Shown here piece after piece: positions 1 to 52,605 of a DNA stretch of 64,000 nt. The notes beneath the pieces are model-generated. The model was not told the DNA's origin. It did no database searches and saw only the letters and a program-made list of their open reading frames with translations. The stretch is from a plasmid, in sequence record NZ_CP014128.2, one strand, 5' to 3'. Made by a program: the position numbers and the translations under genes. How positions within the stretch are numbered: the stretch's first letter is position 1; each line of letters opens with the position of its first letter.

Positions 1-622
1 TCAGCACAATAATGGTGGCCACCATGATGTGATTATCAAAACGCTGATAGCCGTAAACCACGGCCAGATAGCCAATTCCCCCGGCTCCGATCGTTCCGGC
101 GATAGCGGAATACTCAATCATCGAAATAAGATTCAGCACAATGGCTGCCACAATTGTGGGCAGGGCTTCACTGATCTGGGCGCGGGTAATGATTTGCCAC
201 GTGGAGCCGCCGGAGACCAGGCCCACGGCGGTGACATCAGCGGGCAGTTCACGCAACGCATTGCTGACCAGTCGGGCAAAAAAGGGCGTGCCGGCGATGA
301 TCATTGGCACCACGGCTGCGGGGATGCCAATGGTGGTGCCGGTCAGCCAGAAGGTAAAAGGGATAATGGCCGCCATCAGCACCAGAAAAGGGAGTGAACG
401 GCCCATGTTGATAATCCAGCCCAGAATCTGGTGCAGCGTTCTGTGCGGAAACAGCCCCTGCCGCGAGGTGTTAAACAGCACCACCCCCAGCAGGCCACCG
501 AGTGTCACCACAAACAGCATCACCACAGCCACCATCAGCCAGGTTTCGCCGTAGGCGGGCAGCATCAGCGCCGGGATTTGGTTCCACGGCGTATCCTGAC
601 TCAGTACGTCAGCAGGTTTCAT
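1..622 (-). CDS. ABC transporter permease, MetI-like (partial; C-terminus runs off window start)
   Basis: Reverse-strand translation from ATG at 622-620 gives MKPADVLSQDTPWNQIP...IGAGGIGYLAVVYGYQRFDNHIMVATIIVL. This is a MetI/NIL-type 5-TM permease. The ATG overlaps the stop of the upstream ATPase gene (ATGA-style coupling). Confidence 0.75.
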   Translation of the reverse strand, partial: MKPADVLSQDTPWNQIPALMLPAYGETWLMVAVVMLFVVTLGGLLGVVLFNTSRQGLFPHRTLHQILGWIINMGRSLPFLVLMAAIIPFTFWLTGTTIGIPAAVVPMIIAGTPFFARLVSNALRELPADVTAVGLVSGGSTWQIITRAQISEALPTIVAAIVLNLISMIEYSAIAGTIGAGGIGYLAVVYGYQRFDNHIMVATIIVL

Positions 623-1659
623 ACCACCTCCTGCAGGGCCGCACGTTGTTCCAGAATCTCAGCATGAATGCCATAGTGCTGTAGCAGCTCCGTCACCTGC
701 CGGGGCGTGACGCCAGAATGGGAAAAACGAATGGCCACCCGCATCCGTCCCGCCAGCGCATCGCCAACCTGCTCAACGTGGGCCGCCAGCAGATCCACCT
801 GCACGGCAAACTGCTGCGTCAGACGGCTGATCCAGTCGATGGCTATCGGGCGGTCGCCGTAGGTGAGTTGCATCAGCAGATCGCCCGACCCAGCGAGCGG
901 CTGGAGTGGGAACAGCTGCTGACCCAGCGACGAATCGGGCGTGGCCAGCAGCTGACGTAAATGGCCCTGTTGCACCAGCCTGCCGTCTGCAATCTGCGCG
1001 ACGGCGTCGGCTGCGCGCCGCACCACATCCATTTCGTGGGTAATAAAGATGATTGATAGCCCAAACTGATCGCGCAGGGTTTTCAGTAACGTCAGAATGG
1101 CGCGGGTGGCATCCGGATCAAGCCCGGACGTGGCCTCGTCAGCCAGCAACACCGAGGGCTTAAGCGCCAGCGCCCGGGCGATACCCACACGCTGGCGCTG
1201 GCCGCCGGAGAGCTGAGACGGATAAAAGGCCGCCTTGTCACTCAGACCGACGCTCTCCAGTAGCGTGCCAACATGGCGTTTGATCTCCCCGGGCACCACA
1301 CCCAGCCACTCCAGCGGCAGCGCCACATTTTCCCAGGCGGTTTTGCGCTGCAACAGCGCGGATGACTGAAACACCGTGCCTATCGCCCGACGTTTGTGAC
1401 GTAAAGTCTCACCCGTGTAATGTGACAGATCCTCGCCATTGACCCGGATGCTTCCCGATGTTGGTCGCTCCAGCAGACTGATGCACTTTGCCAGCGTCGA
1501 TTTTCCCGCGCCGCTGGGCCCGACGACCGCCGTTATTGAACCGGCAGGAACGCTGAGCGTAATATCTTTCAGCACCTCAACCTGACGATTCTGTGGCCCG
1601 GCGTACGTTTTACTTAGCCCCGTAATCTCAATCATGAGGCCTCCACGCTTTCTGTCCAC
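619..1659 (-). CDS. ABC transporter ATP-binding protein, MetN-like (methionine/D-Met-type importer ATPase with C-terminal NIL domain)
   Basis: Walker A GPSGAGKST, ABC signature LSGGQRQR and Walker B LLADEATSGLD. C-terminal regulatory extension typical of MetN. 346 aa. Confidence 0.85.
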   Translation of the reverse strand: MDRKRGGLMIEITGLSKTYAGPQNRQVEVLKDITLSVPAGSITAVVGPSGAGKSTLAKCISLLERPTSGSIRVNGEDLSHYTGETLRHKRRAIGTVFQSSALLQRKTAWENVALPLEWLGVVPGEIKRHVGTLLESVGLSDKAAFYPSQLSGGQRQRVGIARALALKPSVLLADEATSGLDPDATRAILTLLKTLRDQFGLSIIFITHEMDVVRRAADAVAQIADGRLVQQGHLRQLLATPDSSLGQQLFPLQPLAGSGDLLMQLTYGDRPIAIDWISRLTQQFAVQVDLLAAHVEQVGDALAGRMRVAIRFSHSGVTPRQVTELLQHYGIHAEILEQRAALQEVV

Positions 1660-3041
1660 TGCTCCGCGCTGGCGATACGGCGATAACCAGCCCCCGGATG
1701 CGGCAACGCCAGCCGCGGTCCCTGTCCGAACAACTTTTCACGCAGCGTGCCGGGTTGATAGTCCTGCTTGTAAACGCCGCGCTTTTGCAGTTCCGGCACC
1801 AGCAGGTCCACCACGTCAGTGAAAGTTTCATGCGTCACGGCGTAGGCGAGGTTAAACCCGTCAACGTCAGTTTCTTCAACCCAGCTCTGCAGTTCATCCG
1901 CTACGGTTTCGGCGCTGCCCACCAGCAACGGGCCAAAACCGCCAATGCCCACCCAGTCAGCCAGACCCTGCACCGTCCACTGACGATTGGGATCGGCGGT
2001 GGAGAAGGTCTCAACCGCCGACTGAATGGCGTTGGTATGCAAATGCTTTAATACCTGTTCCGGCTGATACTGCCCGAAATCGATACCGGTCCAGCCCGAG
2101 ATGAGCGCCAGTGCCCCTTCGTAACTGACATAGCTTTTGTACTCCTGCCATCTGGCCTGCGCCGCAAGGTCAGTTTCACCCACAATCACCGTCTGCAGAT
2201 TGAAGATCAGTATGGATCGCGGGTCACGTCCAGCCTCAGCGGCCCTGCGACGAATATCTGCCACAGTTTTCTTCAGCAGTACTTTCGACGGTGCCGCGAC
2301 AAATACGCATTCAGCATGTTCCGCCGCAAACGCCTTGCCGCGGCTGGAGGCACCGGCCTGGTATAGCACTGGCGTGCGCTGCGGTGACGGCTCGCAAAGA
2401 TGAATGCCCGGCACCTGGAAAAACGTTCCCTGATGGTTAATCGGATGGATTTTATTAGGGTCGCTGAATATATGACGTTCACGATCGCGCAGGACAGCGT
2501 CGTCTTCCCAGCTTCCTTCAAGCAGCTTATAGATAACCTGCAGATACTCATCGGCGTAGTCGTAGCGCGCATCGTGGTCGGTCTGGGTCTGCTGGCCAAT
2601 ATTGCGTGCGCCACTTTCCAGGTAGGAGGTGACAATATTCCAGCCAATACGGCCTTTGGTCAGATGATCCAGGGTCGAGATCCGTCGCGCAAACGGGTAG
2701 GGGTGTTCAAACGACAGCGAGGCGGTCAGGCCAAAGCCCAGGTGTTCCGTCACCATGGCCATCGGCGTGATTAACGCCAGCGGATCGTTTACCGGCACCT
2801 GTGTAGCCTGACGGATGGCGGCATGGTTATTACCGTTGAGCACGTCATAGACACCCAGCACGTCAGCAATAAACAGCCCATCAAACTTACCGCGCTCCAG
2901 CAGGCGCGCTAAATCGGTCCAGTACGCCAGATCTTTATACTGCCATGAGCGGTCGCGGGGATGCGCCCACAAACCGGGTGACTGATGACCAACACAGTTC
3001 ATATCGAAAGCATTCAGGCGAATTTCACGTTGCGATGACAT
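1632..3041 (-). CDS. LLM-class FMNH2-dependent monooxygenase, DszA/NtaA-like
   Basis: 470 aa from ATG at 3041, preceded by GGAG. N-terminus MSSQREIRLNAFDMNCVGHQSPGLWAHPRD...GKFDGLFIADVLGV...GWNIVTSY resembles the nitrilotriacetate/dibenzothiophene-sulfone monooxygenase family. The longer ORF-track start at 3278 would overlap the upstream gene and lacks an SD. Confidence 0.75.
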   Translation of the reverse strand: MSSQREIRLNAFDMNCVGHQSPGLWAHPRDRSWQYKDLAYWTDLARLLERGKFDGLFIADVLGVYDVLNGNNHAAIRQATQVPVNDPLALITPMAMVTEHLGFGLTASLSFEHPYPFARRISTLDHLTKGRIGWNIVTSYLESGARNIGQQTQTDHDARYDYADEYLQVIYKLLEGSWEDDAVLRDRERHIFSDPNKIHPINHQGTFFQVPGIHLCEPSPQRTPVLYQAGASSRGKAFAAEHAECVFVAAPSKVLLKKTVADIRRRAAEAGRDPRSILIFNLQTVIVGETDLAAQARWQEYKSYVSYEGALALISGWTGIDFGQYQPEQVLKHLHTNAIQSAVETFSTADPNRQWTVQGLADWVGIGGFGPLLVGSAETVADELQSWVEETDVDGFNLAYAVTHETFTDVVDLLVPELQKRGVYKQDYQPGTLREKLFGQGPRLALPHPGAGYRRIASAEQWTESVEAS

Positions 3042-3108: not shown

Positions 3109-4521
3109 TTAGCAGGTGAGTGAGCCGGGACATCGCTCGCTGAGGAGCAGCGGCGGGGCGGCAAGCAGTTGCCGTGCGACGGCCTCTGCATGTTCCGCCA
3201 CCTGCGGTAATCCCATGAGTTCACCAAAGCGGCCCCGCGCGGCAGGCCCGGCGACATAGAGTCCGGGATTCGCTTCACCGTTCACATTCAGCGTCTGTGA
3301 TAGCGCATTCACCTGGATCCCCAGCGCCAGCGGGTCAGGCTGGATAACGCCATCGCCATGGAGCTGACGCAGCAGCGCATTGCTGTTAAGCAGCGCGTTG
3401 TGTGCAGGGCCGGTGGTGACAATGACTTTCTCCACCTCCAGCATGTGCGATTGCACACCGCGCAGGCGCAACGTCAGCCGGAGCGTTGCGCCATCTGATT
3501 CAGCGGCGATAAGACGCGCCGCCAGCAGAGTCAGCTGACCGCTGGTCTGCTGCTGGCTGAGAACCTGACTCACCTGCGGCGCAATCCGGTAGCGATGAAC
3601 ATCCCACCAGGGGCGCAGATGATGCAGAAAGCGCTGCTGCTCGTGCAGCGACAGACTCTGCCAGATGTGCTGACCGTTACGACGAATATCATCCAGCACC
3701 AGTTGCCAGGGCAGATTCAGCGCCGCCGCCTGTTTAACGTCCTGTCGCACCCGCTGTAGCCAGCCGCGCGCGGTGGCGGGTTGCGGCTGACTGTAATCCA
3801 GGGCGTAAGTCTCATTGCTGCCACTCAGGTTGGCACGCGGCAGCTGGCCACGACGGGAGAAGACGGTAATCTTTCCACGGTGCTGCTGGCGATGCAGCGA
3901 CGCCACCACATCGGACATGGTCAGCCCTGAACCGATAATCGCCACCCGATCGTCAGAGGCGACCTGTGTCAGCGCGTCGCGCTGCCAGGGATTGGCAATC
4001 AAAGCCGGATGGCCCTGTAGCGGCCTCAGCAGAGCAGGCAGATCCGGCGGGGGATGACTGATCGCCAGCACTACCTGATCGGCATGAATCTGCTGCCCGG
4101 AGGCCGTGGTCACCACGCCATTCTTAAAGGCAACCGCACTGTCACGCAGATGACTCAGTTTCACCGGTGAGTACTGCTGCTGATGAACAAACTGCGCATT
4201 GACCCAACGTCCGAACTCACCGCGTTGCGGGTAGACGTTGCCGTCATGCCACAGCGCTTCCGGATCGGTCCTGAAGCCGGCAGAGGCGCGATAGTCGCGA
4301 TCGAAAACACCCTCTTCATCACCGGCAAGCTGCATTCTGCCGGCCGGTACATTAATGCGGTGGGCCGGATCGGTGGTGCCGTATGCCACGCCCTGCGCCA
4401 GCTGTGCGCGAGGTTCAATCACCGTCACCTGCAATCCCGCCTGGCCAGCGCGGGCCAGATGGATCGCCAGCGCGGTGCCGGTGAACCCACCGCCGATAAT
4501 GACAATCTGCTGTTGTGACAT
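3109..4521 (-). CDS. FAD/NAD(P)-binding oxidoreductase (YdhS-like)
   Basis: N-terminal Rossmann dinucleotide motif IVIIGGGFTGTALAIHLA. 470 aa. Confidence 0.65.
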   Translation of the reverse strand: MSQQQIVIIGGGFTGTALAIHLARAGQAGLQVTVIEPRAQLAQGVAYGTTDPAHRINVPAGRMQLAGDEEGVFDRDYRASAGFRTDPEALWHDGNVYPQRGEFGRWVNAQFVHQQQYSPVKLSHLRDSAVAFKNGVVTTASGQQIHADQVVLAISHPPPDLPALLRPLQGHPALIANPWQRDALTQVASDDRVAIIGSGLTMSDVVASLHRQQHRGKITVFSRRGQLPRANLSGSNETYALDYSQPQPATARGWLQRVRQDVKQAAALNLPWQLVLDDIRRNGQHIWQSLSLHEQQRFLHHLRPWWDVHRYRIAPQVSQVLSQQQTSGQLTLLAARLIAAESDGATLRLTLRLRGVQSHMLEVEKVIVTTGPAHNALLNSNALLRQLHGDGVIQPDPLALGIQVNALSQTLNVNGEANPGLYVAGPAARGRFGELMGLPQVAEHAEAVARQLLAAPPLLLSERCPGSLTC

Positions 4522-4547: not shown

Positions 4548-5720
4548 CTAGCTGGCGCTGGCCTGTTTAGCCGGGCGACGGTCGCCGCCGATGGTTTCAC
4601 CAAACGGACCGGTGTTGACGCTGCGCTGTTTCTTTTCGGCGTTGGCGGCCAGCGGCAACAACGGCATGACCAGCTCCGCAAAGCGGTGTGCCTCTTCAAG
4701 GTGCGGATAGCCGGAGAAGATAAAGTTCTCAATGCCCAGTGCCTGATACTCCCGGATGCGATCGGCAACCTGCTGCGGATTGCCGACCAGCGCAGTTCCT
4801 GCGCCGCCGCGCACCAGGCCGACGCCTGCCCAGAGATTGGGACCAATACGCAGGCTCTCCCGCGACCCCTGATGCAGGGCACTCATCCGCGCCTGACCGG
4901 CGGAGTCCATGCGGGCAAAGATCTTCTGCGCGGCGGCGATAGTTTCTTCATCCAGATGAGAAATCAGTCGATCGGCCGCCGCCCAGGCTTCCTCTTCCGT
5001 TTCACGTACAATGACATGCAAGCGGATGCCATAAGAGAGCGTGCGGCCATTCTCCTGCGCCCGCTGACGAACCACCGCCAGCTTCTCCGCGACCTGTTCA
5101 ACCGGCTCGCCCCACGTCAGATAGGTGTCGATCTGATTCGCCGCAACGTCGATAGCAGCCTCAGATGAGCCACCGAAATAGAGTGGCGGACCGTCTTCCT
5201 GCACCGGCGGGAAGAGGATCTCGGCACCTTCCACGCGAATATGCTCGCCTTCAAAGTCTACCTTCTCGCCTTTCAGCAGACGGGAGTAGACCTCAAGAAA
5301 CTCTTTGGTCACCTGATAGCGTTCTTCATGACTCAGGAAGATGCCGTCACCTTTGTTCTCCACCGGATCACCCCCCGTGACCACGTTGATCAGCAACCGG
5401 CCGCCGGAGAGACGGTCCAGCGTCGCCGCCATCCGCGCCGCCAGGCTGGGCGGTTGCAGGCCGGGACGCACGGCCACTAAATAGCGCAGCTTTTTGGTGA
5501 TCGGTGCCAGTGCCGAGGCGACCAGCCATGAATCCTCGCAGCTTTTACCGGTCGGGATTAACACACCGTAGTAGCCCAGATTATCTGCCGCCAGCGCAAC
5601 CTGCTGTAAATAGGGTAAATCGACTGCTCTCCCGCCTTCGGTGGTACCCAGATAGCGCCCGTCGCCGTGGGTAGGCAGAAACCAGAAGAGGTTGAGGTTT
5701 TCCTGTGTCGCATGACTCAT
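4548..5720 (-). CDS. ssuD: Alkanesulfonate monooxygenase-like LLM (SsuD family)
   Basis: 390 aa with [26 protein letters not shown]...[10 protein letters not shown]...YFGGSS, an SsuD-like FMNH2-dependent monooxygenase signature. It is the first gene downstream of the sigma54 promoter. Confidence 0.75.
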
Positions 5721-5790
5721 TAGCAGATTCCTTTATAACGATATTAAAATTTATCACATAGGGTTAATCCCTTTGGTTATATAGCCTCTA

Positions 5791-5805
5791 GCAGGATGCG
5801 TGCCA
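5791..5805 (-). promoter_or_regulatory. Sigma54 (-24/-12) promoter for the ssuD-like operon
   Basis: Minus strand reads TGGCACG-CATC-CTGC, a perfect -24 TGGCACG element with GG-N10-GC spacing. It lies about 70-85 nt upstream of the ssuD-like ATG (5720). Confidence 0.65.
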
Positions 5806-5868
5806 GTGCGATGAAATATTTTTATTATTAAAATTCAGTGATTTATAGTTTTGCTGGCAGACGCTAAT

Positions 5869-5917
5869 CTGCTGCATTCGCAACAGGCATAGTTGTATCC
5901 TGCTGCATTGGCAACAA
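5869..5917. promoter_or_regulatory. Two 18-bp direct repeats (CTGCTGCATTCGCAACAG / CTGCTGCATTGGCAACAA), candidate enhancer (UAS) for the divergent sigma54 activator
   Basis: 17/18 identical copies spaced 31 bp start to start. Each contains a TGC-N4-GCA dyad. They sit 65-110 bp upstream of the -24 element, between the divergent genes. Confidence 0.45.
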
Positions 5918-5994
5918 TCTGGCTTGGTTCGCCTCTCGTTTCGGCGTCTGCGGCGCGGTATGGTCATGGTTTTCCCGTTCACCCGGTAAATGAG

Positions 5995-7884
5995 ATGCAG
6001 ATATCCAGCCCTGAGTTAATTGACCCCGCATCGCGCGCCTTCAAAAGCGTGCTGGATCAGCTCGCGCCCACCGATGCGACGGTACTGATCATCGGTGAAA
6101 CCGGCACCGGCAAAGAGGTAATGGCGCGCTATCTGCATCATCACAGTGCCCGCAGCCGGCAGCCTTTTCTGGCGGTTAACTGCGGCGCACTTACCGAGAG
6201 CCTGGCGGAGTCGGAGCTGTTTGGTCATGAGAAAGGCGCCTTTACCGGCGCACAGGACAGGCATCGTGGCTGGTTTGAGGCGGCAGAGGGCGGCACGCTG
6301 CTGCTGGATGAGATTGGTGAGCTAAGCCCGTCGCTGCAGGTGAAGCTGCTACGCGTGCTGCAGGAGCGTGAAATTACCCGCGTCGGATCGTCCAGGCCGG
6401 TAAAAGTCAATGTGCGGGTCATTGCCGCGACCAACCGGGATCTGGCGGTGGCTATCCGTGAACGGCGATTCCGGGAAGACCTCTATTACCGGCTGAATGT
6501 GGCCAGCGTCACACTGCCGCCGCTGCGCCAGCGCTGCGAAGATATTCCGGTGCTGGCCAGTCACTTCCTGCAACTCTATGCGCGCCGTCTTGGTCGTCCT
6601 CAGCTGCGCCTCAGTGATGAAGCCATGACGGTGTTGATGAACTACAGCTGGCCGGGCAACATCCGTGAACTGGAGAACACGCTGCACAATGCCGTGCTGC
6701 TCAGCAAAAACTCACTGGTCACGCCACAGCAGCTGCGGCTAAGCCCTCTTGCGGGGAGCGACCTGCCGCTGGGAGAGGAGGCGCTGGATCAGTTTTTACG
6801 CCAGCAGATGCAGCAGAGTGATACGCCGCTCTATCCCCGGGTAATTGCTGCGCTGGTGAAAAATGCGCTGGAACTCACGCAGGGTAATCAGTTACAGGCG
6901 GCCGCGCTGCTGGGTATCAGCCGACATACATTGCGCACACAGCTGGGGCATCTGGGGGTGATTAAACCGCGCCGCGGTTCAGTGCGTCAGCGCGATGTTT
7001 CTTTTGGTCAGCAGCCTGAGCAGGAGCGGGAACTGCGTATTGGTTATCAGAAATTTGGCAACCTTGGCATTCTGAAAGCGCGCCAGTCGCTGGAACAGCA
7101 GCTGGCCGGGCAGGGTGTCAGCGTCATGTGGAGTGAATTTCCTGCGGGTCCCCAGCTTCTGCATGCACTGAGCAATAAGGAGATTGATTTCGGGACCACT
7201 GGTGAAGTTCCCCCCTTGTTTGCCCAGGCCAGCAACAGTCCGATGGTCTATGTCGCCTGGGAACCAGCCGCTCCGCAAAGCGTGGCGCTGCTGGTGCCGA
7301 ACAGCAGCCCGGTTAAGCAGATTGGCGATCTCAGGGGCAAACGTATTGCCGTGAATCGCGGCTCCAACGTTCACTATCTGTTGTTGCAGATTCTGGATGA
7401 GGCGGGTTTAGCGCTGGATGATGTGCGCATTGTCTATGCCCCGCCTAAATATCCTTTGACGCCCAGCGATCTCAACGCGGTAGATGCCTGGATGATGTGG
7501 GATCCGTTACTCAGCGATGCGGAGAACAGCGGAGAGTTCAGGGTGATTGCAGATGGCACCGGCCGGGTCAATAACCATCAGTTTTACCTGGCTGAGCGCG
7601 GATTTGCGACGCACTCTGGCGATCTGTTACAGGTTTTGCTTAGCGCGCTGGAGCAGACCGGCCGCTACATTGATGCGCATCGGGCTGAAGCTGCCGGGCT
7701 GCTCTCCACGGAACTCGGCATCTCTGCCACCTCACTGATGCACGCCTTAGCCCGGCGCAGCCATCAGACCCAGAGAATGAACCTGGCCATCATCCGGGAA
7801 CAGCAAACCATCGCGGACCGCTTCTATGCGCTGGGGTTATTCAGTCGCGCCATTCGCGTACGCGAGTCGGTCTGGCATCCATAG
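5995..7884 (+). CDS. Sigma54-dependent transcriptional activator (AAA+ and Fis-type HTH) fused to a C-terminal SsuA/NMT1-like solute-binding domain
   Basis: Walker A GETGTGKE, GAFTGA motif, ELFGHEKGAFTGA, and HTH LQAAALLGISRHTLRTQL. After the HTH comes a ~300-aa domain (WSEFPAGPQLLHALSNKEIDFGTTGEVPPLFAQA...DLRGKRIAVNRGSNVHYLL...DAWMMWDPLLSDAE) collinear with the mature part of the adjacent SBP (7980..8927). Start chosen at ATG 5995 (MQISSPELIDP...) because the upstream repeats would otherwise lie inside the gene. The ORF track's alternative start is 5893. Confidence 0.7.
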   Translation: MQISSPELIDPASRAFKSVLDQLAPTDATVLIIGETGTGKEVMARYLHHHSARSRQPFLAVNCGALTESLAESELFGHEKGAFTGAQDRHRGWFEAAEGGTLLLDEIGELSPSLQVKLLRVLQEREITRVGSSRPVKVNVRVIAATNRDLAVAIRERRFREDLYYRLNVASVTLPPLRQRCEDIPVLASHFLQLYARRLGRPQLRLSDEAMTVLMNYSWPGNIRELENTLHNAVLLSKNSLVTPQQLRLSPLAGSDLPLGEEALDQFLRQQMQQSDTPLYPRVIAALVKNALELTQGNQLQAAALLGISRHTLRTQLGHLGVIKPRRGSVRQRDVSFGQQPEQERELRIGYQKFGNLGILKARQSLEQQLAGQGVSVMWSEFPAGPQLLHALSNKEIDFGTTGEVPPLFAQASNSPMVYVAWEPAAPQSVALLVPNSSPVKQIGDLRGKRIAVNRGSNVHYLLLQILDEAGLALDDVRIVYAPPKYPLTPSDLNAVDAWMMWDPLLSDAENSGEFRVIADGTGRVNNHQFYLAERGFATHSGDLLQVLLSALEQTGRYIDAHRAEAAGLLSTELGISATSLMHALARRSHQTQRMNLAIIREQQTIADRFYALGLFSRAIRVRESVWHP

Positions 7885-7979
7885 CGTTTTTTTAGCTAAG
7901 CATCGAACATTTCATCGCTAAGCGCTTCAACCCGCGTTTGTTATGTTGCGCAGACAACAACCAGACTCAGGAATGAGAG

Positions 7980-8927
7980 ATGAAAAAAGTTTTACTTCGC
8001 GCTTTGATTATTGCCGCCCAGGCGGCTTTCGCGTTCAACACCCAGGCAGCAGAGAAACCCGAGACAGTGAACATCGGTTTTCAGAAAGCCAATATCTTTG
8101 CGCTGCTGAAGTATCGCGGCACGCTGGATCAGGAATTTAAAAAGCAGGGTATTGCGGTGCACTGGATTGAGTTCCCGGCCGGGCCGCAGATGCTGGAAGG
8201 CTTAAACATCGGCAGTATCGATCTGGCCGCTACCGGCGACGCGCCACCGACGTTCGCGCAGGCAGCGCAGGCCGATCTGGTTTATCTGGGACACTCGCCA
8301 GCTAACCCTAAAACCGAAGCGATTGTGGTGCCCGCTGACTCCCCGATTAAAAGCGTGGCGGATCTTAAAGGCAAGCGTGTGGCGCTGAATAAAGGCTCTG
8401 ACGTTAATTATCTGCTGGTCACCGCGCTGGAGCAGGCAGGGCTGACCTATAAAGATATTACGCCGGTCTATCTGCCACCTGCGGATGCGCGTGCCGCTTT
8501 CCAGCGCGGCGCGGTGGATGCCTGGGTCATCTGGGATCCCTACTACGCCGAAGTGGAAACTAATGCCCACGCGCGGCTGATTAAAAATGCCGAAGGGCTG
8601 GTGCCGCACTACACCTTCTATCTTGCCAGCCGTAAGTTCGCGGAGCGCTATCCCCACATCGCTTCTGAGGTGGTGGATGAGCTGGGTTCACTGAGTCAGT
8701 GGGCTAATCAAAATCAGGAAGAGGCCGCAAAAATCATGTCCACCTCAACCGGCCTGCCGCAGCCGATCTGGCAGCGCGCGCTGGCAAGGATGCCGTTTGG
8801 CGCAGAGCGGATGACGCCAGAAGTCTTCACCCAGCAGCAGGCGCTGGCAGATACCTTTACCCGGATTGGTCTGTTGCCGGTGAAAGTCGATATCCGCAGC
8901 GCAACCTGGTCGCAGGATATGAAATAA
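7980..8927 (+). CDS. Periplasmic substrate-binding protein, aliphatic sulfonate/NMT1 (SsuA/TauA) family
   Basis: Signal peptide MKKVLLRALIIAAQAAFAFNTQA. Body WIEFPAGPQMLEGLNIGSIDLAATGDAPP...DLKGKRVALNKGSDVNYLL...DAWVIWDPYYAEVE. Good SD GGAATGAGAGA before the ATG. Confidence 0.8.
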   Translation: MKKVLLRALIIAAQAAFAFNTQAAEKPETVNIGFQKANIFALLKYRGTLDQEFKKQGIAVHWIEFPAGPQMLEGLNIGSIDLAATGDAPPTFAQAAQADLVYLGHSPANPKTEAIVVPADSPIKSVADLKGKRVALNKGSDVNYLLVTALEQAGLTYKDITPVYLPPADARAAFQRGAVDAWVIWDPYYAEVETNAHARLIKNAEGLVPHYTFYLASRKFAERYPHIASEVVDELGSLSQWANQNQEEAAKIMSTSTGLPQPIWQRALARMPFGAERMTPEVFTQQQALADTFTRIGLLPVKVDIRSATWSQDMK

Positions 8928-8938
8928 AGGAAAGGCGG

Positions 8939-8980
8939 GCGGATGCAGTAGAAAAGATAGGTGCATCCGCTTAGTTTGTG
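8939..8980. terminator. Convergent hairpin terminator between the SBP gene and higA
   Basis: GCGGATGCA-(14 nt loop)-TGCATCCGC followed by TTAGTTTGTG on the plus strand. The T-tract overlaps the higA stop. Confidence 0.35.
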
Positions 8981-9276
8981 CTCCGCAACTGATCGGGCTT
9001 ATAGCGGCTATTCAGCACGCTTAAATCCACTTTTTTTGCTGCGCGGTCAAGGTCATAGGCCGCCTGTATGCGTAGCCACATTTCAGGTGTACTGCCGATC
9101 ACAGCAGATAATCTAATGGCCATTTCTGGGGTGACAGCAGTAGTTCCGGAAACCATTCTGGAAACAGTCGAAGGTGCAATTGCCAAAGCACGAGCCAGTT
9201 CCCTGATCCCGATACCGAGGTCTTCCATGATATCGGAAATAACTTCACCAGCGTGCGGGGGGTTATGCATTTTCAT
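8971..9276 (-). CDS. higA: HigA-family antitoxin (XRE-type HTH)
   Basis: MKMHNPPHAGEVISDIMEDLGIGIRELARALAIAPSTVSRMV... HTH. Start overlaps the higB stop (TGATG). Confidence 0.8.
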   Translation of the reverse strand: MKMHNPPHAGEVISDIMEDLGIGIRELARALAIAPSTVSRMVSGTTAVTPEMAIRLSAVIGSTPEMWLRIQAAYDLDRAAKKVDLSVLNSRYKPDQLRSTN

Positions 9277-9554
9277 CAGTGATAATCCTCATAATTCAGA
9301 ATCCAGGCATCCCCATCTTTAAACTCAAAAGTAATGCGCCAGTTCCCTGTGACCGTGATCGACCAGATACCTTGTCTGTCACCTTTAAGTGGATGCAGCC
9401 TGTAGCCGCTGAGGTTCATATCCTCAATATTTTCAGCAAGGTCGATAACCCTTAAGCGAGTACGTAACCGTTTTTCATGGGCTGCATTAATTTTTCTGGT
9501 TGAGCCGGTGGTGTAAAACTCTTCAAGCCCCTTGTGTAGCCAGGTTTTGATCAT
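9276..9554 (-). CDS. higB: HigB/RelE-like toxin (plasmid maintenance system killer family)
   Basis: MIKTWLHKGLEEFYTTGSTRKINAAHEKRLRTRLRVIDLAENIEDMNLSGYRLHPLKGDRQGIWSITVTGNWRITFEFKDGDAWILNYEDYH, 92 aa from ATG 9554. Toxin-upstream, antitoxin-downstream order is typical of higBA. Confidence 0.75.
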   Translation of the reverse strand: MIKTWLHKGLEEFYTTGSTRKINAAHEKRLRTRLRVIDLAENIEDMNLSGYRLHPLKGDRQGIWSITVTGNWRITFEFKDGDAWILNYEDYH

Positions 9555-10046
9555 CCGTGTTTCCCAGTGTTGCCTGATGTGGAACATCATAGCATGTGTT
9601 GCATCTAATGCAACAGAAGGGTTAACAGACAGCAATTTCTTAAAGAAGATGAGCGATACAGATATGACACTGATTTAACAGACTTTACGGGTTGACACTC
9701 TCTCTTCAATACTCACATCTACGCATCCGTTCCTCATTGATATCCCGGCCACATCAGGCAACGACTGCGGAGCTTGAAGGCATGGCTGTAAGAATGGCCG
9801 CCTCATTGATGGATAAAAACAGCTAAGCGAACTCAAAAAACTTTGCGCGCTTCAGCGCAGGAAAAAGCGTGTGGCAGGACGGCGGGGCTGTTACCTCGGC
9901 CGGCAGAGAGAAAACCGGACTTTAGCGAAGCGGTGCCGATATTTCAAAGAGTTACACCATATTTATTTCACCAGACGGCTTCATAAGCTGTTCTACACTT
10001 ACATCTTCAGTCGCGCCATTTGACTGAAAAAGCCGCATCACGAAGA

Positions 10047-10082
10047 GGGTGGCGACAGCAATGCATCACGCAGTCGCCACCC
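10047..10082. other. Perfect 10-bp inverted repeat (GGGTGGCGAC-N16-GTCGCCACCC) in the fdhA leader
   Basis: Seen directly. Lies 33 nt upstream of the fdhA ATG (10115). No T-tract follows it. Confidence 0.3.
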
Positions 10083-10114
10083 TCAAAACTGATCATGCAA
10101 GAGAGGTGAACACT

Positions 10115-11248
10115 ATGAAAGCAGTTGTCTATAACGGACCATTTGACGTTTCAGTCAAAGATGTCCCGGATCCGAAAATCGTTCGTCCCACCGATGTGAT
10201 TGTCCGTATTACCACCACCAATATCTGCGGTTCTGACTTACATATGTACGAAGGGCGAACCAGCTTTGAGCAGGGTCGCATCTTCGGCCATGAGAATCTG
10301 GGCCAGGTTGTTGAAATTGGTAGCGGTGTAGAGCGGATTAAAGTCGGTGATTATGTCTGCCTGCCCTTTAATGTCGGCTGCGGCTTCTGTGAAAATTGCG
10401 AGAAAGGGTTAACCGGTTACTGTCTGACGGCCAATCCGGGCACGGCAGGTGCCGCCTATGGCTTTGCGGAGATGGGCGAATGGGAGGGTGGACAGGCGGA
10501 ATTACTTCGTGTTCCCTTCGCTGACTTTAACTGTCTGGTTTTGCCTCCGGATGCGGCAGAAAAGGAGGAAGACTACGTTATGCTGTCCGACATCTTCCCT
10601 ACCGGCTGGCATGCCACTGAGCTGGCAGGCTTGCGCCCTGGCGAGAGTGTTGCCATTTACGGCGCTGGCCCGGTCGGCTTAATGGCGGCGCATTCGGCCA
10701 TGATTAAAGGCGCATCACAGGTCTTTGTGGTCGATACCCATCCGGACAGACTGGCGTTAGCCGAACAGCTTGGCGCAGTGGCGATCAATGGCGTGGGCGA
10801 TGACGCGGTCAATAAAATCCTCGACCTCACCGATGGGCGCGGCACGGATTGCGGTTGCGAATGCGTGGGCTACCAATGCTGCAATAAACATGGCCACGAA
10901 GATAACTCCGCCACGCTGAACAGCCTTGTTGCATCAACTAAAGCCACGGGCGGGATTGGTACGGTAGGCGTTTTTGTTCCTCAGGATCCCGGCGGGGCAA
11001 CCGAACTGGCTAAAGAGGGCAAAGTGCCGTTCGATTTCGGTACGTTCTGGTTTAAAGGTCAGTCAATGAAGACCGGCCAGTGTAACGTGAAAGCCTACAA
11101 CCGCCAGCTCGCAAGGCTTATCCATCAGGGCCGAGCCAATCCGGCGCAGATCATCTCGCATCGTCTTGCACTGGCAGACGCTCCCGAAGGCTATAAGCAT
11201 TTTGACGATCGGGATAATGGCTGGACAAAAGTCATTCTGAAGCCCTGA
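10115..11248 (+). CDS. fdhA: Glutathione-independent formaldehyde dehydrogenase (zinc ADH family)
   Basis: MKAVVYNGPFDVSVKDVPDPKI...GHE...GxGxxG (IYGAGPVGL), Zn-binding Cys ladder CLPFNVGCGFCENC. SD GAGAGGTG 7 nt upstream of ATG 10115. Confidence 0.8.
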   Translation: MKAVVYNGPFDVSVKDVPDPKIVRPTDVIVRITTTNICGSDLHMYEGRTSFEQGRIFGHENLGQVVEIGSGVERIKVGDYVCLPFNVGCGFCENCEKGLTGYCLTANPGTAGAAYGFAEMGEWEGGQAELLRVPFADFNCLVLPPDAAEKEEDYVMLSDIFPTGWHATELAGLRPGESVAIYGAGPVGLMAAHSAMIKGASQVFVVDTHPDRLALAEQLGAVAINGVGDDAVNKILDLTDGRGTDCGCECVGYQCCNKHGHEDNSATLNSLVASTKATGGIGTVGVFVPQDPGGATELAKEGKVPFDFGTFWFKGQSMKTGQCNVKAYNRQLARLIHQGRANPAQIISHRLALADAPEGYKHFDDRDNGWTKVILKP

Positions 11249-12236: not shown

Positions 12237-12515
12237 TCAGCACGGATAAATCCACTGTTTTAGCCGCCCGGTCAAGGTCATAGGCAGCCTGGATGCGAAG
12301 CCACATCTCTGGGGTACTGCCAAAACAGCGGCTAGTCTGATAGCCATCTCAGGCGTTACAGCGGTGATGCCAGAAACCATTCTTGAGGCTGTCGAGGGTG
12401 CGATAGCCAAAGCACGCGCTAACTCCCTGATTCCGATATCAAGATCTTCCATAATATCGGAGATAATTTCACCTGCGTGTGGGGGTTCTGCATTTTCATC
12501 AGTAATCATCCTCAT
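12237..12515 (-). pseudogene. Second, frameshifted higA copy
   Basis: First 55 aa about 85% identical to higA at 8971..9276 (PHAGEIISDIMEDLDIGIRELARALAIAPST...). A 1-nt deletion relative to copy 1 puts the C-terminus out of frame. Confidence 0.6.
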
Positions 12516-15511: not shown

Positions 15512-18500
15512 TCAGCTTTTCATTTCAAACCCTTCTTTTCTCAGCTCAGAGAGAGCCGATGCCACTTCCGGATTGGCTTTAGCAATGTCACCCTCGAGAG
15601 TGAAGCGCCGGGGTGTGTCCTGGTCCTGACCGTATTTGAAGTTAATGGTGCCGATATTGCGTTCCATACTGACGCCCGCGCTGTTGCTGGCGCCCAGTAA
15701 GAGCGTCGGCGTGTTGAATCCTTCACTTTTGGTAACATTCTGGCTGACGCTGATTGATCGGATGCGCAGGTTATTACGATCCTGGAACAGCAGCCCCAGT
15801 TCCTCGCGCCCTACTTTACCGTCCAGAATGGCTTTTTCCGTCTGATCGCGCAGGCCATCCTTCAGCTCCATCGAGACGCTGGCGCTACTGAACGGCGTGT
15901 TTTGCAACTGTTTGATCAACCCCTTCAGTACCGGATCGTTATCTATCATCGCGCTCAGACGGGTAGCATTAGTGGGTGGCAGGGCCGCGTTAAAATGCTG
16001 CTTCAGCATATCCACAATACCGTTCTCATCCAGCCGGGACAGATTGCTGTAAGAAGTACTGTGCCTGGCCGAGCCCAACCCCATCACGTTGGTTTCAGCA
16101 GCCTGCTGCTGCAGTACCAGCTGTTCCAGGTTGCGTACCGCCTCATATCTGTCGTCACCGATGACCTTATTGCGGGTAAAATGGCGGTGTAACTCGTTCA
16201 GTTGCTTTGAGGGTTCAGGGTTTTCCTGTTTTTTCAGGTCGGCCAGCAGTTTGGTGCTCTCGCTGTCCTTGAAATGTTTGCCTAGCGTGGAGGTCAGCTC
16301 GCTGATATCGTTGCTGGTTACCGGATCGGCCTGCTTCATCTCCACGCTGATCCTTTGGGTGGTGCGGTTATCCATCGCCAGCGACACCGCCACGTTAGTG
16401 GAGGTGAAGGCCGGAAAAGTCCCGACGGACTTAGCCGGCTGTTTGGTGGCATTGTCGGTGACCTTACCATCATGAGTAAAACCGTGGGCGACACCGACAC
16501 TGAAGGTAAGGTTGGCCCCGACGTTAGCCGAGTTAAGGAAAGTCGCACGGTTGTCACTGGCCGCGACCGTGCTGCCAAACTCGCCTTTTTGCGTACTGCG
16601 TTCGCGTCTGGCGGTCATCAGGTTAGCCGAACCGCTTACCCCGGTGGAAATACGGGCGGTTACACCGTCAGGTTTTGCGCCGTCGTTGGTGATGTTAATC
16701 CCGGCACGCAAATCGAAGGCCGCTGAGGTATCGACGTTGAACACCAGTTTGGTGCCCTGCTTCATCTGATGTTCAATCCCTTTTTTCATCAGCTCGGTCG
16801 GCGTCAGCGTGCCGTGCGTCAGGCCATGCAGAAAATCAGGCAGTTCATCTTCGGTCAGTTTGAAGTTAAGACTGTTTTGCAGCGTCCCCTGGACGTTACT
16901 GCTGATGCTGCCGCCGATACGAAAATCCGGGCTGATCTTATGTTTTTTGCTCAGCCAGTCGCTGGCATTTTCGGCGGTGTTTTTTTTGCCGGTCATGTAG
17001 GGCATTAAATCGTGGCCGGTAGCAACAGAGATGGTGCCGGTTGCCCCCCCGTCACGACCAAAGGTGACGTCCAGTCCACCGCTGGTACGGCCAAAGCTCA
17101 GGTTATAAGCACGGTCGAGGGTGATCCCCGCGCCGGGCACGATCGGCACCGGGATTTTGTTTAGCGTCGGTACAAACGCGGTGCTGAGGCCACCGCCGTA
17201 GGCACGGCTGAAACTGATGCTTTCGCCGCCGTCCAGCGACAACAGCGTGTCTTTTAATTTTTTCTCCAACTGGGCGTTGCCCTGGGTGTCCAGCACGGTG
17301 CGGGTGGTCAGGTTGACGCCGTGGTGCTCTTTCTTAAAGGCGTTGATAAAGGCTTTCACCGCATCGTAATTGGCCTCCAGCGGTGCGTTATGGCTGAAGC
17401 CCATGTCGGTAAACTGCTTCACCGGGTTAGCGCCATACTGCTTTTCGCGCAGGGTATCGAACTGCTGACGCAACTGCTTGATCTGGTCGGGATCGGGCTG
17501 ATGTCCTGATACCAGTGCCGCCTTATCCGCCAGCTGATGCAGATCGCCGATGGTAACGGTATCCAGAATCAGCCGCGATTTGGTGAGGGATGTTTCGTCA
17601 TTGGGATCGCGCTGACGCCCCATCGGCACGTCACCTTTCTGGTGACTCATATTTACCCCGGCTTTGACGAAGTGTCTGAGCAGCGCTTGCAGCTTACTTT
17701 GTGGTGACGGCGCGGCAGAGCTGACCGCTTTTTCTAACGCTTTACTGAGGTCACGACCTGAGCGGTTGACGTTAAAGCTTTGAATGACCGCCTTACTGGC
17801 TGAAGGTCTGAACTCTTCGTTAATCTGACCGTTGCTTTTCAATACCCCCTGATGCTGACCCAGTTCAGTGGCCGAGCGGACGGCATTCTGTTCCAACTCT
17901 TCACGGAACCGCTTCATATCATTCAGCAACGCCGCACCGTGTTCACCTAAATCCAGCACTTCCATTTTGCTGTGCAAATCCATTTGTGTGCCGCTGTTAC
18001 GCACGTTGTGCGCTTCCAGCTGCTTAATCAGTGCGCCCTGCATTTCGTAAACCGAGCCCAGACCACGCCGTCCCTGCCAGTTATGCTGTATGTTGTAGGC
18101 CGCATTCTTGATCGGACGCGGCGTCGCCATCGTCGGATTGAAAATATAGGCGCGCACCCGATCGGTAAATTTACTGGTGATTTTGCGGTTTTCCATCCCG
18201 GTCTGCCCGCCCACCTGCGCAGTAAGCTGCATGTTCACGCCGGTTCCGGGGATCAGGCGGCCTTTGAGGCCCTGATTTAAACGGGCAAATACCTGTTCCG
18301 AACCACGCTGGCCTACCTCCAACGGCCCAGACTCTGGCGCGGTATGCGCATGCCACTCCCCTTCTCTCAACTTATGCAGGGTGCCGTCAGCCATCGTGGC
18401 GACCGGCTGGTTGTCATGGTCCATCTCCAGCCGTTGCAGTTCACTTTCGCTGTGCGGCATCGCCAGTTTTTGCCAGTTACCGCCAGCCTCCCCGCTCTGC

Positions 18501-37103: not shown

Positions 37104-37120
37104 AGCAATGCCTGTGCCAG
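37104..37120 (-). promoter_or_regulatory. Sigma54 promoter of hrpL
   Basis: Minus strand reads TGGCAC-AGGCA-TTGCT, consensus -24/-12 spacing. Lies about 40 nt upstream of the hrpL ATG. Confidence 0.75.
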
Positions 37121-37297: not shown

Positions 37298-37331
37298 CCT
37301 GCAACAGCTCTCATATTTGAGGTTCGCCAGG

Positions 37332-38495
37332 ATGAAAATTGCTCCCGTTATACCCGGCATTCAACCGACGCTGCCGGTTGCTACCAGCGTGGTAGATGAT
37401 GTTCTGCCGCCGGTCAGTGTTGCGCCCTCATCGTCCAGTGCATCATCACGCATGCCTGCTTCCCTGCTGGAAGACTCGATGGAAGAAGTCTCAATGACCT
37501 TCGCGGAACACGTAGAACGTAAAAGCAAGGCGTTAAATCAGCGGAAAGTGGTGGCACAGCCGGGTAGCCGGGCGATGCAACATATTGAACGTATTGAGAA
37601 GTTAGACGAGCTGATGAAGTTGCTGGAGCACCCGCAACACGCACAGCTGGAAACCCTGAATCAGAAGATGCAGGCCCTCCTGAGCCGTTCACCCTCTCCA
37701 CATCTGGATGTGCTGCTGGACGCTGCAGGTGATGATCCTGTGCGCTGTGACGTAATGCTGCGTCACACAATGCTCCAGGCACAGCTGACGCAAAACACCG
37801 AACTGGCAGCCAGGGCATTACAAAGCCTTGAGTTGTTACACAAGGAAAAAGGGGCCGAAGTCAGCGCCGGGTTGAATACCGCCAGCGCCATTGCCACTTT
37901 CAGTACCGATCCGAAACAAAAACAGGCGATGCGCCAGCTCTACTATAAAACCATTGTTCATCTGCAATCAGGCCATGCGATGCTGGATGCGCTGCTGAAC
38001 AGCGTTGGTAGCGTGCATTTCAGACAGGGATTGCGCACCTTACAGCGCGCGTTATCTGATGATATTGCGGCTCACAGTTCTTCCATCCCGCGAGGCGCAC
38101 TGCAAAAAATCATCGCCAGCCTTCAGGATGCTGGCAATATCAGTCAGACGCTGACCGCCAGCAAAATTTTGCTGGCACGTCTGGCCGGGAAACTGCCCGA
38201 TATTAGCTTCAGCCCATTAGAGTTGACCCGTCGCCTGTTAAATCTGAGCGGAAACGGCGCTTACCTGCGGGATCTGCAAAATCTTTCACGCGATGTGGCA
38301 GGCCAGCATCCCCATCATCAGGTGCTGTTTCTCAGCGGGCTGGTGCCGCTGGTCTACCATCTGCCGCTGGGACTGTGGCGGGATGAGAAAAGTAAAAACC
38401 GCCAGATGGCGTTAAATCTGTTGCGCACGGTGATCAGTGAATACGCTGCCCATGAGCCGCGAGCCTCGCTGTCGCAACCCAGAGCGGCGTTATAA
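37332..38495 (+). CDS. hrpJ: HrpJ gatekeeper (YopN/SepL family)
   Basis: 387 aa from ATG 37332 with SD GAGG. First gene of the long plus-strand operon. Confidence 0.75.
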   Translation: MKIAPVIPGIQPTLPVATSVVDDVLPPVSVAPSSSSASSRMPASLLEDSMEEVSMTFAEHVERKSKALNQRKVVAQPGSRAMQHIERIEKLDELMKLLEHPQHAQLETLNQKMQALLSRSPSPHLDVLLDAAGDDPVRCDVMLRHTMLQAQLTQNTELAARALQSLELLHKEKGAEVSAGLNTASAIATFSTDPKQKQAMRQLYYKTIVHLQSGHAMLDALLNSVGSVHFRQGLRTLQRALSDDIAAHSSSIPRGALQKIIASLQDAGNISQTLTASKILLARLAGKLPDISFSPLELTRRLLNLSGNGAYLRDLQNLSRDVAGQHPHHQVLFLSGLVPLVYHLPLGLWRDEKSKNRQMALNLLRTVISEYAAHEPRASLSQPRAAL

Positions 38496-52288: not shown

Positions 52289-52605
52289 AGCTGACTCGCC
52301 ATCAGCGCCACACCCGTCACCACCAGCAGCGTGCCGGCAATCTGGCGCAGCGTTAACCGCTCACGCCAGAGAATGCGGCCGGCCAGCGCAACGAAAATGA
52401 AGTTAATGCTCAGCATCGGATAAGCCTGGCTGACAGGCACCCGCTGCAACACCAGCAGCCAGAGCAGCATCGCGACACCAAGCAGCAGCACGCTCGCGCC
52501 AATCCAGCTTAAGCGAATCCGGCGTGAAGTCGCGTGAGTCGCCTGTTTCTGGCACAGCTGCGCACTGCAGCTGAGCAGACTCACCAGCACAATCAGCAGC
52601 AGCAT
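52285..52605 (-). CDS. arnE: ArnE flippase subunit
   Basis: 106 aa, SMR-like, overlapping arnT and arnF. Confidence 0.7.
   Translation of the reverse strand: MLLLIVLVSLLSCSAQLCQKQATHATSRRIRLSWIGASVLLLGVAMLLWLLVLQRVPVSQAYPMLSINFIFVALAGRILWRERLTLRQIAGTLLVVTGVALMASQL

Follow-up and report, generated by a model that had tools for sequence, protein, structure and literature searches.

Organization of the Locus

The DNA analyzed here (hereafter, the window) is a stretch of 64,000 nucleotides of the plasmid sequence record NZ_CP014128.2. Two plus-strand genes are found in its 5700–9000 region. The first codes for a predicted sigma-54-dependent activator, or bacterial enhancer-binding protein (bEBP), which carries a solute-binding protein (SBP) domain of the SsuA family behind its helix-turn-helix (HTH), and the second codes for a separate SBP of 315 aa. 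Divergent from the regulator gene lies an operon that begins with a gene for an SsuD/MsuD-type alkanesulfonate monooxygenase. The positions of these and other features are given in Table 1.

Open reading frame (ORF) analysis and reading of the sequence revealed that the frame of the regulator is uninterrupted from its ATG to the stop codon. The same 629-aa coding sequence (CDS) is annotated by RefSeq on the 97% identical plasmid pVag2 of Pantoea vagans, and the orthologues retrieved by protein search are 627–639 aa long and align from residue 1 with 100% coverage. A preliminary description of this DNA had given the regulator a length of 663 aa, which is that of a mechanical ORF opened at TTG 5893. 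This start was rejected, since the orthologues begin at the ATG and the additional 34 codons overlap the upstream binding sites of the regulator.

Table 1. Positions of the regulator gene, its predicted control sites and other features of the window.
Feature	Position	Strand	Basis or remark
Regulator CDS: AAA+ sigma-54 activator, Fis-type HTH and SsuA-like domain	5995..7884	+	One open frame, 629 aa
AAA+ sigma-54 interaction domain and lid, residues 13–248	6031..6738	+	Pfam PF00158 (2.5e-69), PF25601 (3.3e-24)
Fis-type helix-turn-helix HTH_8, residues 287–314	6853..6936	+	Pfam PF02954, 31.1 bits (cut-off 22)
Flexible linker from HTH to SBP domain, residues ~323–343 (~20 aa)	6961..7023	+	Predicted local distance difference test (pLDDT) scores and low conservation
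SsuA-family solute-binding domain, cytoplasmic (predicted), residues ~344–629	7024..7881	+	TIGR01728, PDB matches, pocket mapping
Sigma-54 (−24/−12) promoter (predicted) TGGCACGCATCCTGCT, facing the ssuD-like operon	5790..5805	-	One mismatch to TGGCAC-N5-TTGCW
IHF-like site ATTCAGTGATTTA between upstream sites and promoter	5833..5845	.	By eye from the alignment, inference only
Upstream activator site 1 (predicted), palindrome TGCTGCATTCGCAACA	5870..5885	.	Exact TGYTGC-N4-GCARCA
Upstream activator site 2 (predicted), palindrome TGCTGCATTGGCAACA	5901..5916	.	31 bp from site 1
Possible third, degenerate regulator site TGTTGCGCAGACAACA	7944..7959	.	One-mismatch match, 21 bp upstream of the SBP start codon
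SsuD/MsuD-type FMNH2-dependent alkanesulfonate monooxygenase, first target gene	4548..5720	-	TIGR03565 equivalog, 618.8 vs. 518.2 bits
FAD/NAD(P)-binding oxidoreductase (NAD_binding_9), second operon gene	3109..4521	-	Pfam PF13454, 6.2e-27
NtaA/DmoA-family FMN-dependent monooxygenase	1632..3041	-	TIGR03860, 570 vs. 279.7 bits; RefSeq 469-aa CDS
MetN-like ATP-binding cassette (ABC) ATPase	619..1635	-	Pfam ABC_tran and NIL; pVag2 annotation
Periplasmic SsuA-family SBP, Sec-type signal peptide	7980..8927	+	NF008588, 326 vs. 299 bits
AvrE/DspE-family effector	15512-21130	-	
HrpW-like pectate-lyase protein	21310-22764	+	
HrcC secretin	27267-29405	-	
HrpS-like sensor-less bEBP	32890-33888	-	Contact loop GAYTGA
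Extracytoplasmic-function (ECF) sigma gene hrpL	36505-37077	-	
HrpJ, HrcV, HrcN	37317-42912	+	

Domain Architecture of the Regulator

The domains were called with Pfam and NCBIfam models, and the NCBIfam scores were judged against the curated cut-offs. The N-terminal part of the regulator matches Sigma54_activat (residues 13–172, 2.5e-69) and AAA_lid_14 (residues 178–248), and contains a Walker A (GETGTGKE), a Walker B (DEIGE), the arginine fingers and sensor II, as well as a GAFTGA loop at residues 81–86 (nucleotides 6235–6252). Among 77 diverse members of the family, the columns of Walker A, GAFTGA, Walker B, the arginine finger and sensor II are 92–100% conserved, and R160, R166 and R224 of the AAA+ domain are conserved as well. 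In the adjoining Fis-type HTH, residues N298, Q299, L306, R310 and R314 are invariant across the family. To judge by these motifs, the regulator is a bEBP with a catalytically complete AAA+/GAFTGA core.

The AAA+ domain starts about 12 residues into the protein, and the Pfam and NCBIfam search revealed no receiver, GAF, PAS, V4R or other N-terminal domain. No Response_reg match, and hence no NtrC-type receiver domain with a phospho-acceptor Asp, was detected in the regulator by Pfam, and the models for NtrC, ZraR, AtoC and similar proteins match its AAA+/HTH part only, at scores far under their cut-offs. The HTH_1 and LysR_substrate domains of LysR-type regulators gave no Pfam match either.

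The C-terminal part is covered by Pfam NMT1 (residues 374–500) and by the SsuA-family model TIGR01728 (residues 347–627; 168.0 bits, cut-off 163.5), while the score with NF008588, a model of the full-length SsuA subfamily, is under the cut-off (235.1 bits vs. 299). In BLASTP, the regulator shares 38% identity with the SBP encoded downstream over 289 aa without gaps (E = 5e-73), and the alignment begins at the mature N-terminus of the latter. The search of PDB sequences with the regulator retrieved the SsuA proteins of E. coli (2x26) and X. citri (3e4r), both at about 3.5e-55. No signal peptide and no transmembrane segment were found in the regulator (highest 19-residue Kyte-Doolittle mean, 1.13), and, since it has no hydrophobic segment, the SBP-like domain is predicted to be cytoplasmic.

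An AlphaFold model built with a 77-sequence alignment has a mean pLDDT of 87.9 and a predicted TM-score (pTM) of 0.50, with disordered stretches at residues 253–258 and 325–341 (pLDDT < 50 at 325–341). In Foldseek searches against the PDB, the AAA+ core resembles FlrC, ZraR, NtrC1, DmpR and FleQ (target-normalised TM-score > 0.9), and the C-domain resembles three SsuA structures (target-normalised TM-score 0.81–0.88), while no PDB structure matches both halves of the protein. As AlphaFold gives the domains but no interdomain arrangement, no structural mechanism is drawn from it.

The order of domains given in the preliminary description, i.e., an AAA+ domain with GAFTGA, a Fis-type HTH and then an SBP-like domain, is confirmed by Pfam, NCBIfam, BLASTP and Foldseek. 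All of the expected domain matches (Sigma54_activat, HTH_8 and NMT1 in Pfam, the SsuA family in TIGR01728) were obtained, the C-domain does align to the mature part of the downstream SBP, and the fused copy lacks a signal peptide, as had been stated.

Conservation and Spread of the Fusion

In total, 258 full-length fusions were collected, and the AAA+ domain precedes the SBP domain in all of them. The AAA+ match begins no more than about 20 residues into the chain in 235 of these 258 proteins, which therefore have no N-terminal sensor. The first protein search yielded more than 120 full-length orthologue clusters with 70–94% identity from Pantoea, Erwinia (including E. amylovora), Serratia, Rouxiella, Tatumella, Paramixta, Gibbsiella and Kalamiella. 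A HMMER search of 50%-identity representatives added eight full-length clusters and four fragments with the same domain order and 39–51% identity, the named members of which come from Methylocystis and a metagenome-assembled genome of Myxococcota. About 115 further full-length clusters, including those of Sorangium, Polyangiales and Myxococcaceae, were found by a profile search with the distant fusions, mostly in soil and sediment metagenomes. The fusion is thus known from Enterobacterales, Alphaproteobacteria and Myxococcota, and, given this spread, it is likely to be old.

A lost stop codon or a frameshift that merged two genes, yielding an artefact or a pseudogene, is a negligible prospect for the regulator: the same architecture and length recur in hundreds of independent assemblies and in the 258 full-length sequences, the same CDS is present on closed plasmids, and the domain boundary falls at the mature SBP N-terminus. 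The earlier view that a read-through fusion is improbable is thus borne out, and the proposed search for orthologues shows the fusion to be conserved across genera. In databases, two conflicting names are in use for the fused proteins, "sigma-54-dependent Fis family transcriptional regulator" and [quoted passage not shown], and no curated NCBIfam or Pfam family model spans the whole protein.

Predicted Ligand-Binding Pocket of the SsuA-Like Domain

In X. citri SsuA, the sulfonate is contacted by the side chain of Gln36, by the main-chain NH groups of Gly68, Gly86 and Ser141, and by the hydroxyl of Ser141, while Trp185 packs against the organic part of the ligand (PMC3839906). For pocket mapping, all of the fusions were aligned with the two solved SsuAs, and residues were counted over 259 C-domains (258 fusions and the window protein). 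Gln36, Gly68 and Gly86 correspond to Gln352, Gly385 and Gly403 of the regulator, each of which is retained in 258 of the 259 C-domains, and Trp185 corresponds to Trp502 (254/259). At the position of Ser141, the regulator has Asn458, and the family has Asn in 234 and Gln in 20 C-domains. Thus, four of the five ligand contacts are near-invariant in the fused family, and the fifth is changed to Asn or Gln in 254 of the 259 proteins.

Within Enterobacterales, the mean identity of the SBP domain (76%) is close to that of the AAA+ core (83%), while the two linkers are at 31–37%. Across the family, the linker between the HTH and the SBP domain has 8–31% identity and varies in length from 8 to 55 residues. 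This pattern is the one that a functional pocket on a flexible tether would be expected to show. The conservation indicates that the pocket of the fused domain is under selection and that its anion-binding part is largely preserved, and the family-specific change at Ser141 hints at a specificity differing from that of the transporter SsuAs.

The pocket data also bear on the possibility that the C-domain senses nothing and is instead a dimerisation or scaffold module or a docking surface, the regulator being controlled by its expression level only, as is reported for SfnR. Sensor-less bEBPs such as PspF, HrpS and SfnR do exist, a HrpS-like one is encoded in the same window, and the AlphaFold model has no confident interdomain contact. 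A non-sensing module is nevertheless improbable, since the four contacts are near-absolute and the fifth is limited to Asn or Gln across three phylum- or class-level groups, and the whole 290-aa domain is kept at a level of conservation near that of the AAA+ core.

Predicted Promoter and Operator Sites

A promoter had been noted previously at 5791–5805. This −24/−12 element is indeed a real one, but it lies on the minus strand and is predicted to drive the divergent ssuD-like operon. In the alignment of six intergenic regions (Pantoea, Serratia, E. amylovora, Rouxiella, Tatumella and the metagenomic locus L088), the −24 GG and the −12 GC are kept throughout. The alignment also revealed two 16-bp palindromes 31–32 bp apart, the defining positions of which are invariant in the six loci. 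Both the promoter and the palindromes are kept in L088, where the encoded regulator is only 49% identical. With the start site of the ssuD-like operon estimated at about 5779, the palindromes are centred near −99 and −130, an arrangement akin to that of the two strong NtrC sites at glnAp2. Between the palindromes and the promoter, a candidate IHF site sits in an AT-rich tract; it is perfect in Serratia (WATCAANNNNTTR) and has one to two mismatches in the other Enterobacterales. A sigma-54 promoter considered on the plus strand (5909–5924) was rejected, as it departs from the consensus at two positions, lacks conservation and coincides in part with site 2.

For control of the operator motif, 80 unrelated bEBP loci were used, which came from a contig search dominated by the generic bEBP peptide FGHEKGAF. 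Exact TGYTGC-N4-GCARCA was absent from all of the 80, while it is present in nine of the 11 loci that encode the fused regulator (two of the nine being duplicate Serratia loci). The remaining two, both from E. amylovora, have a variant of the site. The palindrome occurs twice in each Enterobacterales locus (as the variant in E. amylovora) and twice in L088, and a scan of the window at up to one mismatch gave 10 matches, with 1.97 expected. Among the more distant family members, locus L087 carries the palindrome upstream of its SsuD-type and DszC/SfnB-like genes. The Methylocystis-type locus L089 has it ahead of both monooxygenase operons, in one case next to a −24/−12 match, and in Sorangium it stands, together with a −24/−12 match, directly upstream of a ribB-like gene. 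The candidate third site of the window, ahead of the SBP gene, is only partly or poorly conserved in Rouxiella and is a weak lead.

A sigma-70-like promoter match was found at 5800–5828. Since both palindromes sit between this match and the start codon of the regulator gene, the regulator probably also represses its own gene.

Predicted Target Operon and Regulon

The SsuD-type gene is the conserved divergent neighbour of the regulator in all of the Enterobacterales loci examined and in L088, and the gene for the FAD/NAD(P)-binding oxidoreductase is co-conserved with it in six loci. The equivalog cut-off for SsuD is passed in the window, L087, L088 and L089, and that for SfnG in E. amylovora, L087 and L089. 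Genes of the acyl-CoA-dehydrogenase fold near family members match the DszC and SfnB models under cut-off. In the distant members, the palindrome stands before SsuD-type, SfnG-adjacent, DszC/SfnB-like and ribB genes. In pseudomonads, SfnG, MsuC and MsuD convert dimethylsulfone to methanesulfinate, then to methanesulfonate, and finally to sulfite and formaldehyde (PMC8234197, PMC13352529). The gene set of the regulon is that of the dimethylsulfone-to-sulfite enzymes of pseudomonads. The conserved partner of the regulator is the divergent monooxygenase operon and not a transporter, and it is very likely that the regulator is the sigma-54 activator of this operon.

Genes for ribB or ribBA are located in or beside the distant regulons (L087, 12604–13872; L089, 11263–12324; L086, 16146–17330), an arrangement suggestive of joint control of the FMNH2-dependent monooxygenases and their flavin supply.

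A gene for a protein of the zinc-type alcohol-dehydrogenase family, which bears the name glutathione-independent formaldehyde dehydrogenase in the pVag2 annotation, is located at 10049–11248 of the window. On pVag2, it directly follows the SBP gene, while in the window a HigB/HigA toxin-antitoxin pair (8971–9635) is inserted between the two. A truncated second higA-like ORF with a near-identical core is found at 12237–12515, and this arrangement suggests a small insertion or rearrangement. The adjoining formaldehyde dehydrogenase would fit a C1 sulfonate substrate, as circumstantial evidence.

Neighbouring Periplasmic SBP and Origin of the Fused Domain

According to the preliminary description, the regulator had recruited a copy of the binding protein of the transporter itself. 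As an evolutionary scenario, this amounts to a recent local duplication of the adjacent SBP gene, the copy being fused to a sensor-less regulator and sharing the ligand of its source. Two homologous genes with 38% identity do lie side by side, and the pair is syntenic in Pantoea and Rouxiella, where an orthologue of the neighbouring SBP (70% identical) occupies the same position after the regulator. However, the C-domain of the regulator is equidistant from the neighbouring SBP (37.7% identity), E. coli SsuA (38.0%) and X. citri SsuA (36.8%), and the neighbouring SBP itself shares 46% and 44% identity with the E. coli and X. citri proteins, respectively. Nor is the neighbouring SBP closer to the local C-domain than to most of the other fusions: its identity to the C-domains of the Serratia, Erwinia, Rouxiella, Tatumella, Sorangium, L087 and L088 fusions is 36.9–42.6% (41.8% for Sorangium), and 34% to that of the Methylocystis-type L089.

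Gene context speaks against the duplication as well. Among the loci checked, an SBP gene downstream of the regulator was found only in Pantoea and Rouxiella, and the fused regulator is followed by none in the metagenomic and Methylocystis-type loci or in those of Serratia marcescens, E. amylovora, Tatumella and Sorangium. In none of the loci checked is there a neighbouring gene for an SsuBC-type permease or ATPase. The only ABC system beside the regulator is of the MetNIQ type, with a MetQ of its own, and its MetI and MetQ genes continue past the start of the window. The link to a transporter made earlier is therefore not upheld. The pockets differ too: the regulator has GSNVH, while the neighbouring SBP has GSDVN, with Asp at the Ser141 position (motif KGSDVNY) and Asn in place of the following His, both of which are kept in the Rouxiella orthologue. 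An acidic residue in the pocket of the neighbouring SBP argues against a simple anionic sulfonate as its ligand. On these grounds, a recent local duplication is highly improbable. As far as the sequence comparisons indicate, the C-domain and the neighbouring SBP are paralogues at the level of the family, the fusion is of ancient origin, and the neighbouring SBP is a lineage-specific accessory gene.

Proposed Mode of Action

With a probability of roughly 0.6, the regulator is a cytoplasmic one-component bEBP that activates sigma-54-dependent transcription of an organosulfur-scavenging operon, with its C-domain probably serving as the ligand sensor. The preliminary description had also arrived at a cytoplasmic one-component sensor, which is kept as the best reading. 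That the ligand is an organosulfonate or a sulfone is a tentative guess from gene context and pocket conservation.

In the proposed scheme, HTH dimers would sit on the two palindromes, and in Enterobacterales IHF would assist in looping the DNA. The ligand of the C-terminal SsuA domain would be a small sulfonate-like compound from inside the cell, with methanesulfonate or a short alkanesulfonate as the first guess and methanesulfinate and dimethylsulfone as alternatives. Ligand-induced closure of the SsuA domain would then release or promote assembly of the AAA+ ring (hexamer), which would remodel the sigma-54 holoenzyme into the open complex at the −24/−12 promoter. The same operator would probably also provide autorepression of the regulator gene.

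Several points weigh against this reading. That the domain binds a ligand, which signal it reads and in which direction, and how the SBP domain would be coupled to the ATPase are all deduced from sequence, as sigma-54 dependence is from motifs alone. The AlphaFold monomer shows no confident interdomain packing (pTM 0.50, disordered linkers), and the replacement of Ser by Asn or Gln throughout the family, at a residue that contacts the sulfonate, may point to another ligand. Furthermore, sulfonate-utilisation genes are classically under the control of CysB/Cbl and sulfate starvation, and for this reason the domain might read sulfur sufficiency and not the substrate.

The last point can be put as an explanation of its own, in which the SsuA-like domain senses an anion of sulfur sufficiency (sulfate, sulfite, thiosulfate, or one like adenosine 5'-phosphosulfate) and, as a co-repressor switch, holds the activator inactive as long as sulfur is in ample supply. 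The conserved residues are those of the anion-coordinating dipole of SsuA and not readers of an alkyl chain, the change of Ser141 to Asn or Gln is specific to the family, and ssu, msu and sfn genes belong to the sulfate-starvation stimulon. Such a switch is unlikely, though somewhat less so than a C-domain that senses nothing: the family invariantly keeps the counterpart of Trp185, the residue that X. citri SsuA stacks against the organic moiety of its ligand, the domain as a whole matches SsuA-type proteins and not sulfate or thiosulfate binders, and ligand-sensing bEBPs are commonly induced by substrate. Activation by an intracellular organosulfur compound is thus retained as the preferred reading.

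Comparison with Known Systems

The functionally closest known system is SfnR of P. putida and P. aeruginosa, which, like the regulator described here, is a sigma-54 activator of genes for FMNH2-dependent organosulfur monooxygenases. Papers on SfnR1/SfnR2, the sigma-54-dependent activator of sfnFG, sfnA and the msu genes, are cited in PMC8234197 and PMC13352529. Its regulon overlaps that of the fused family in SsuD/MsuD-type, SfnG and SfnB/DszC-like genes. As with the fused regulator, no N-terminal sensory domain is known in SfnR; it is a protein of about 370 aa in which no C-terminal SBP domain is known either, and it is controlled via CysB-dependent expression. No cluster among the nearest short bEBPs retrieved bears the name SfnR, and a protein search with one of them, P0160, led to an Oxalobacteraceae/Massilia clade with TonB receptors and ExbBD in its context, which is not sfn-like.

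The bEBPs XylR/DmpR (V4R), NorR (GAF), TyrR/PhhR (ACT-PAS), PrpR and AcoR follow the same logic of a sensor combined with an AAA+/GAFTGA core and a Fis-type HTH, and ligand-sensing bEBPs likewise operate with upstream activator sites, an IHF site and a −24/−12 promoter. In XylR/DmpR-type proteins, however, the sensor stands ahead of the AAA+ domain, whereas the order is inverted in the fused regulator, where it would follow the HTH. Its fold, that of a type II periplasmic-binding protein (SsuA), is absent among the classic bEBP sensors, and the known intramolecular repression of the AAA+ core by an N-terminal domain is not simply transferable to it.

By its TIGR01728 score and its fold, the C-domain would belong with SsuA/TauA (PDB 2x26, 3e4r, 3ksx, 6ssy), although it stays under the cut-off of NF008588, and it shares the Gln, Gly, Gly and Trp contacts with them. 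Unlike these proteins, it is predicted to be cytoplasmic, is fused to a transcription factor, has Ser141 replaced, and is not linked to ssuBC. The LysR-type regulators CysB, Cbl, SsuR and AsfR, which control ssu/tau-type genes, are also built of an HTH followed by an effector domain of the type II periplasmic-binding-protein fold, but they have a winged HTH_1 and not a Fis-type HTH_8, LysR_substrate and not NMT1/SsuA, and act with sigma-70 without an AAA+ motor. Cytoplasmic sensing by such folds has precedents in the NrtA-like C-terminal domain of cyanobacterial NrtC, a cytoplasmic ligand sensor of the NMT1/NrtA superfamily, and in AmiC of P. aeruginosa, a homologue of periplasmic-binding proteins that senses its ligand inside the cell. 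The output differs in each case: an ABC ATPase for NrtC, an antiterminator partner for AmiC/AmiR, and a sigma-54 AAA+ activator for the fused regulator.

Other Features of the Window

A complete hrp/hrc type III secretion island, with the AvrE/DspE-family, HrpW-like, HrcC, HrpJ, HrcV and HrcN genes of Table 1, is found at 15512–42912. The window also has a second sigma-54 circuit (32890–37119), in which the HrpS-like gene is followed by hrpY and hrpX, and hrpL. The sequence TGGCACAGGCATTGCT at 37104–37119 on the minus strand, located before hrpL, is the sole perfect match to TGGCAC-N5-TTGCW in the window. Just outside the island, a 509-aa protein with a Fic/DOC domain is encoded at 50246–51775, and it may be an effector. 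In addition, ArnT-, ArnA- and ArnB-like genes for aminoarabinose modification of lipid A are found on the minus strand at 52605–59364 of this apparent plasmid.

Implications

The literature search found no description of a bEBP with a C-terminal SsuA/NMT1 domain; its coverage of subscription journals was thin, and the absence is not proof. The preliminary description, to which no characterised regulator of this kind was known, is in agreement with this result. The fused regulator is therefore presented as an uncharacterised but widespread bEBP variant, most likely a one-component sensor of organosulfur compounds. Control of bEBPs is known nearly entirely from N-terminal sensors or inhibitors acting in trans, and a large, phylum-spanning family with its sole candidate sensor behind the HTH is a natural case in which to test AAA+ gating from the opposite end. 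The regulator is also a concrete, purifiable candidate for direct organosulfur sensing, whereas sulfate starvation via CysB/Cbl, together with SfnR expression, is otherwise the main explanation offered for how sulfonate and sulfone assimilation is controlled. For annotation, the name [quoted passage not shown] is wrong for what is predicted to be a cytoplasmic transcription factor, and the defined 16-bp operator with its promoter makes a ready biosensor chassis for sulfonates.

It is conceivable, though put forward with reserve, that the family represents a new layout of sigma-54 activators, in which an SBP-derived sensor placed after the HTH gates assembly of the AAA+ ring from the DNA-proximal end, and that it includes the first direct intracellular sensor of organosulfonates or sulfones. 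If so, the mechanism of gating would differ from that of N-terminal repressing domains, and the regulator would govern a cross-phylum conserved regulon of C–S-cleaving monooxygenases and flavin supply, independently of, or on top of, CysB/Cbl.

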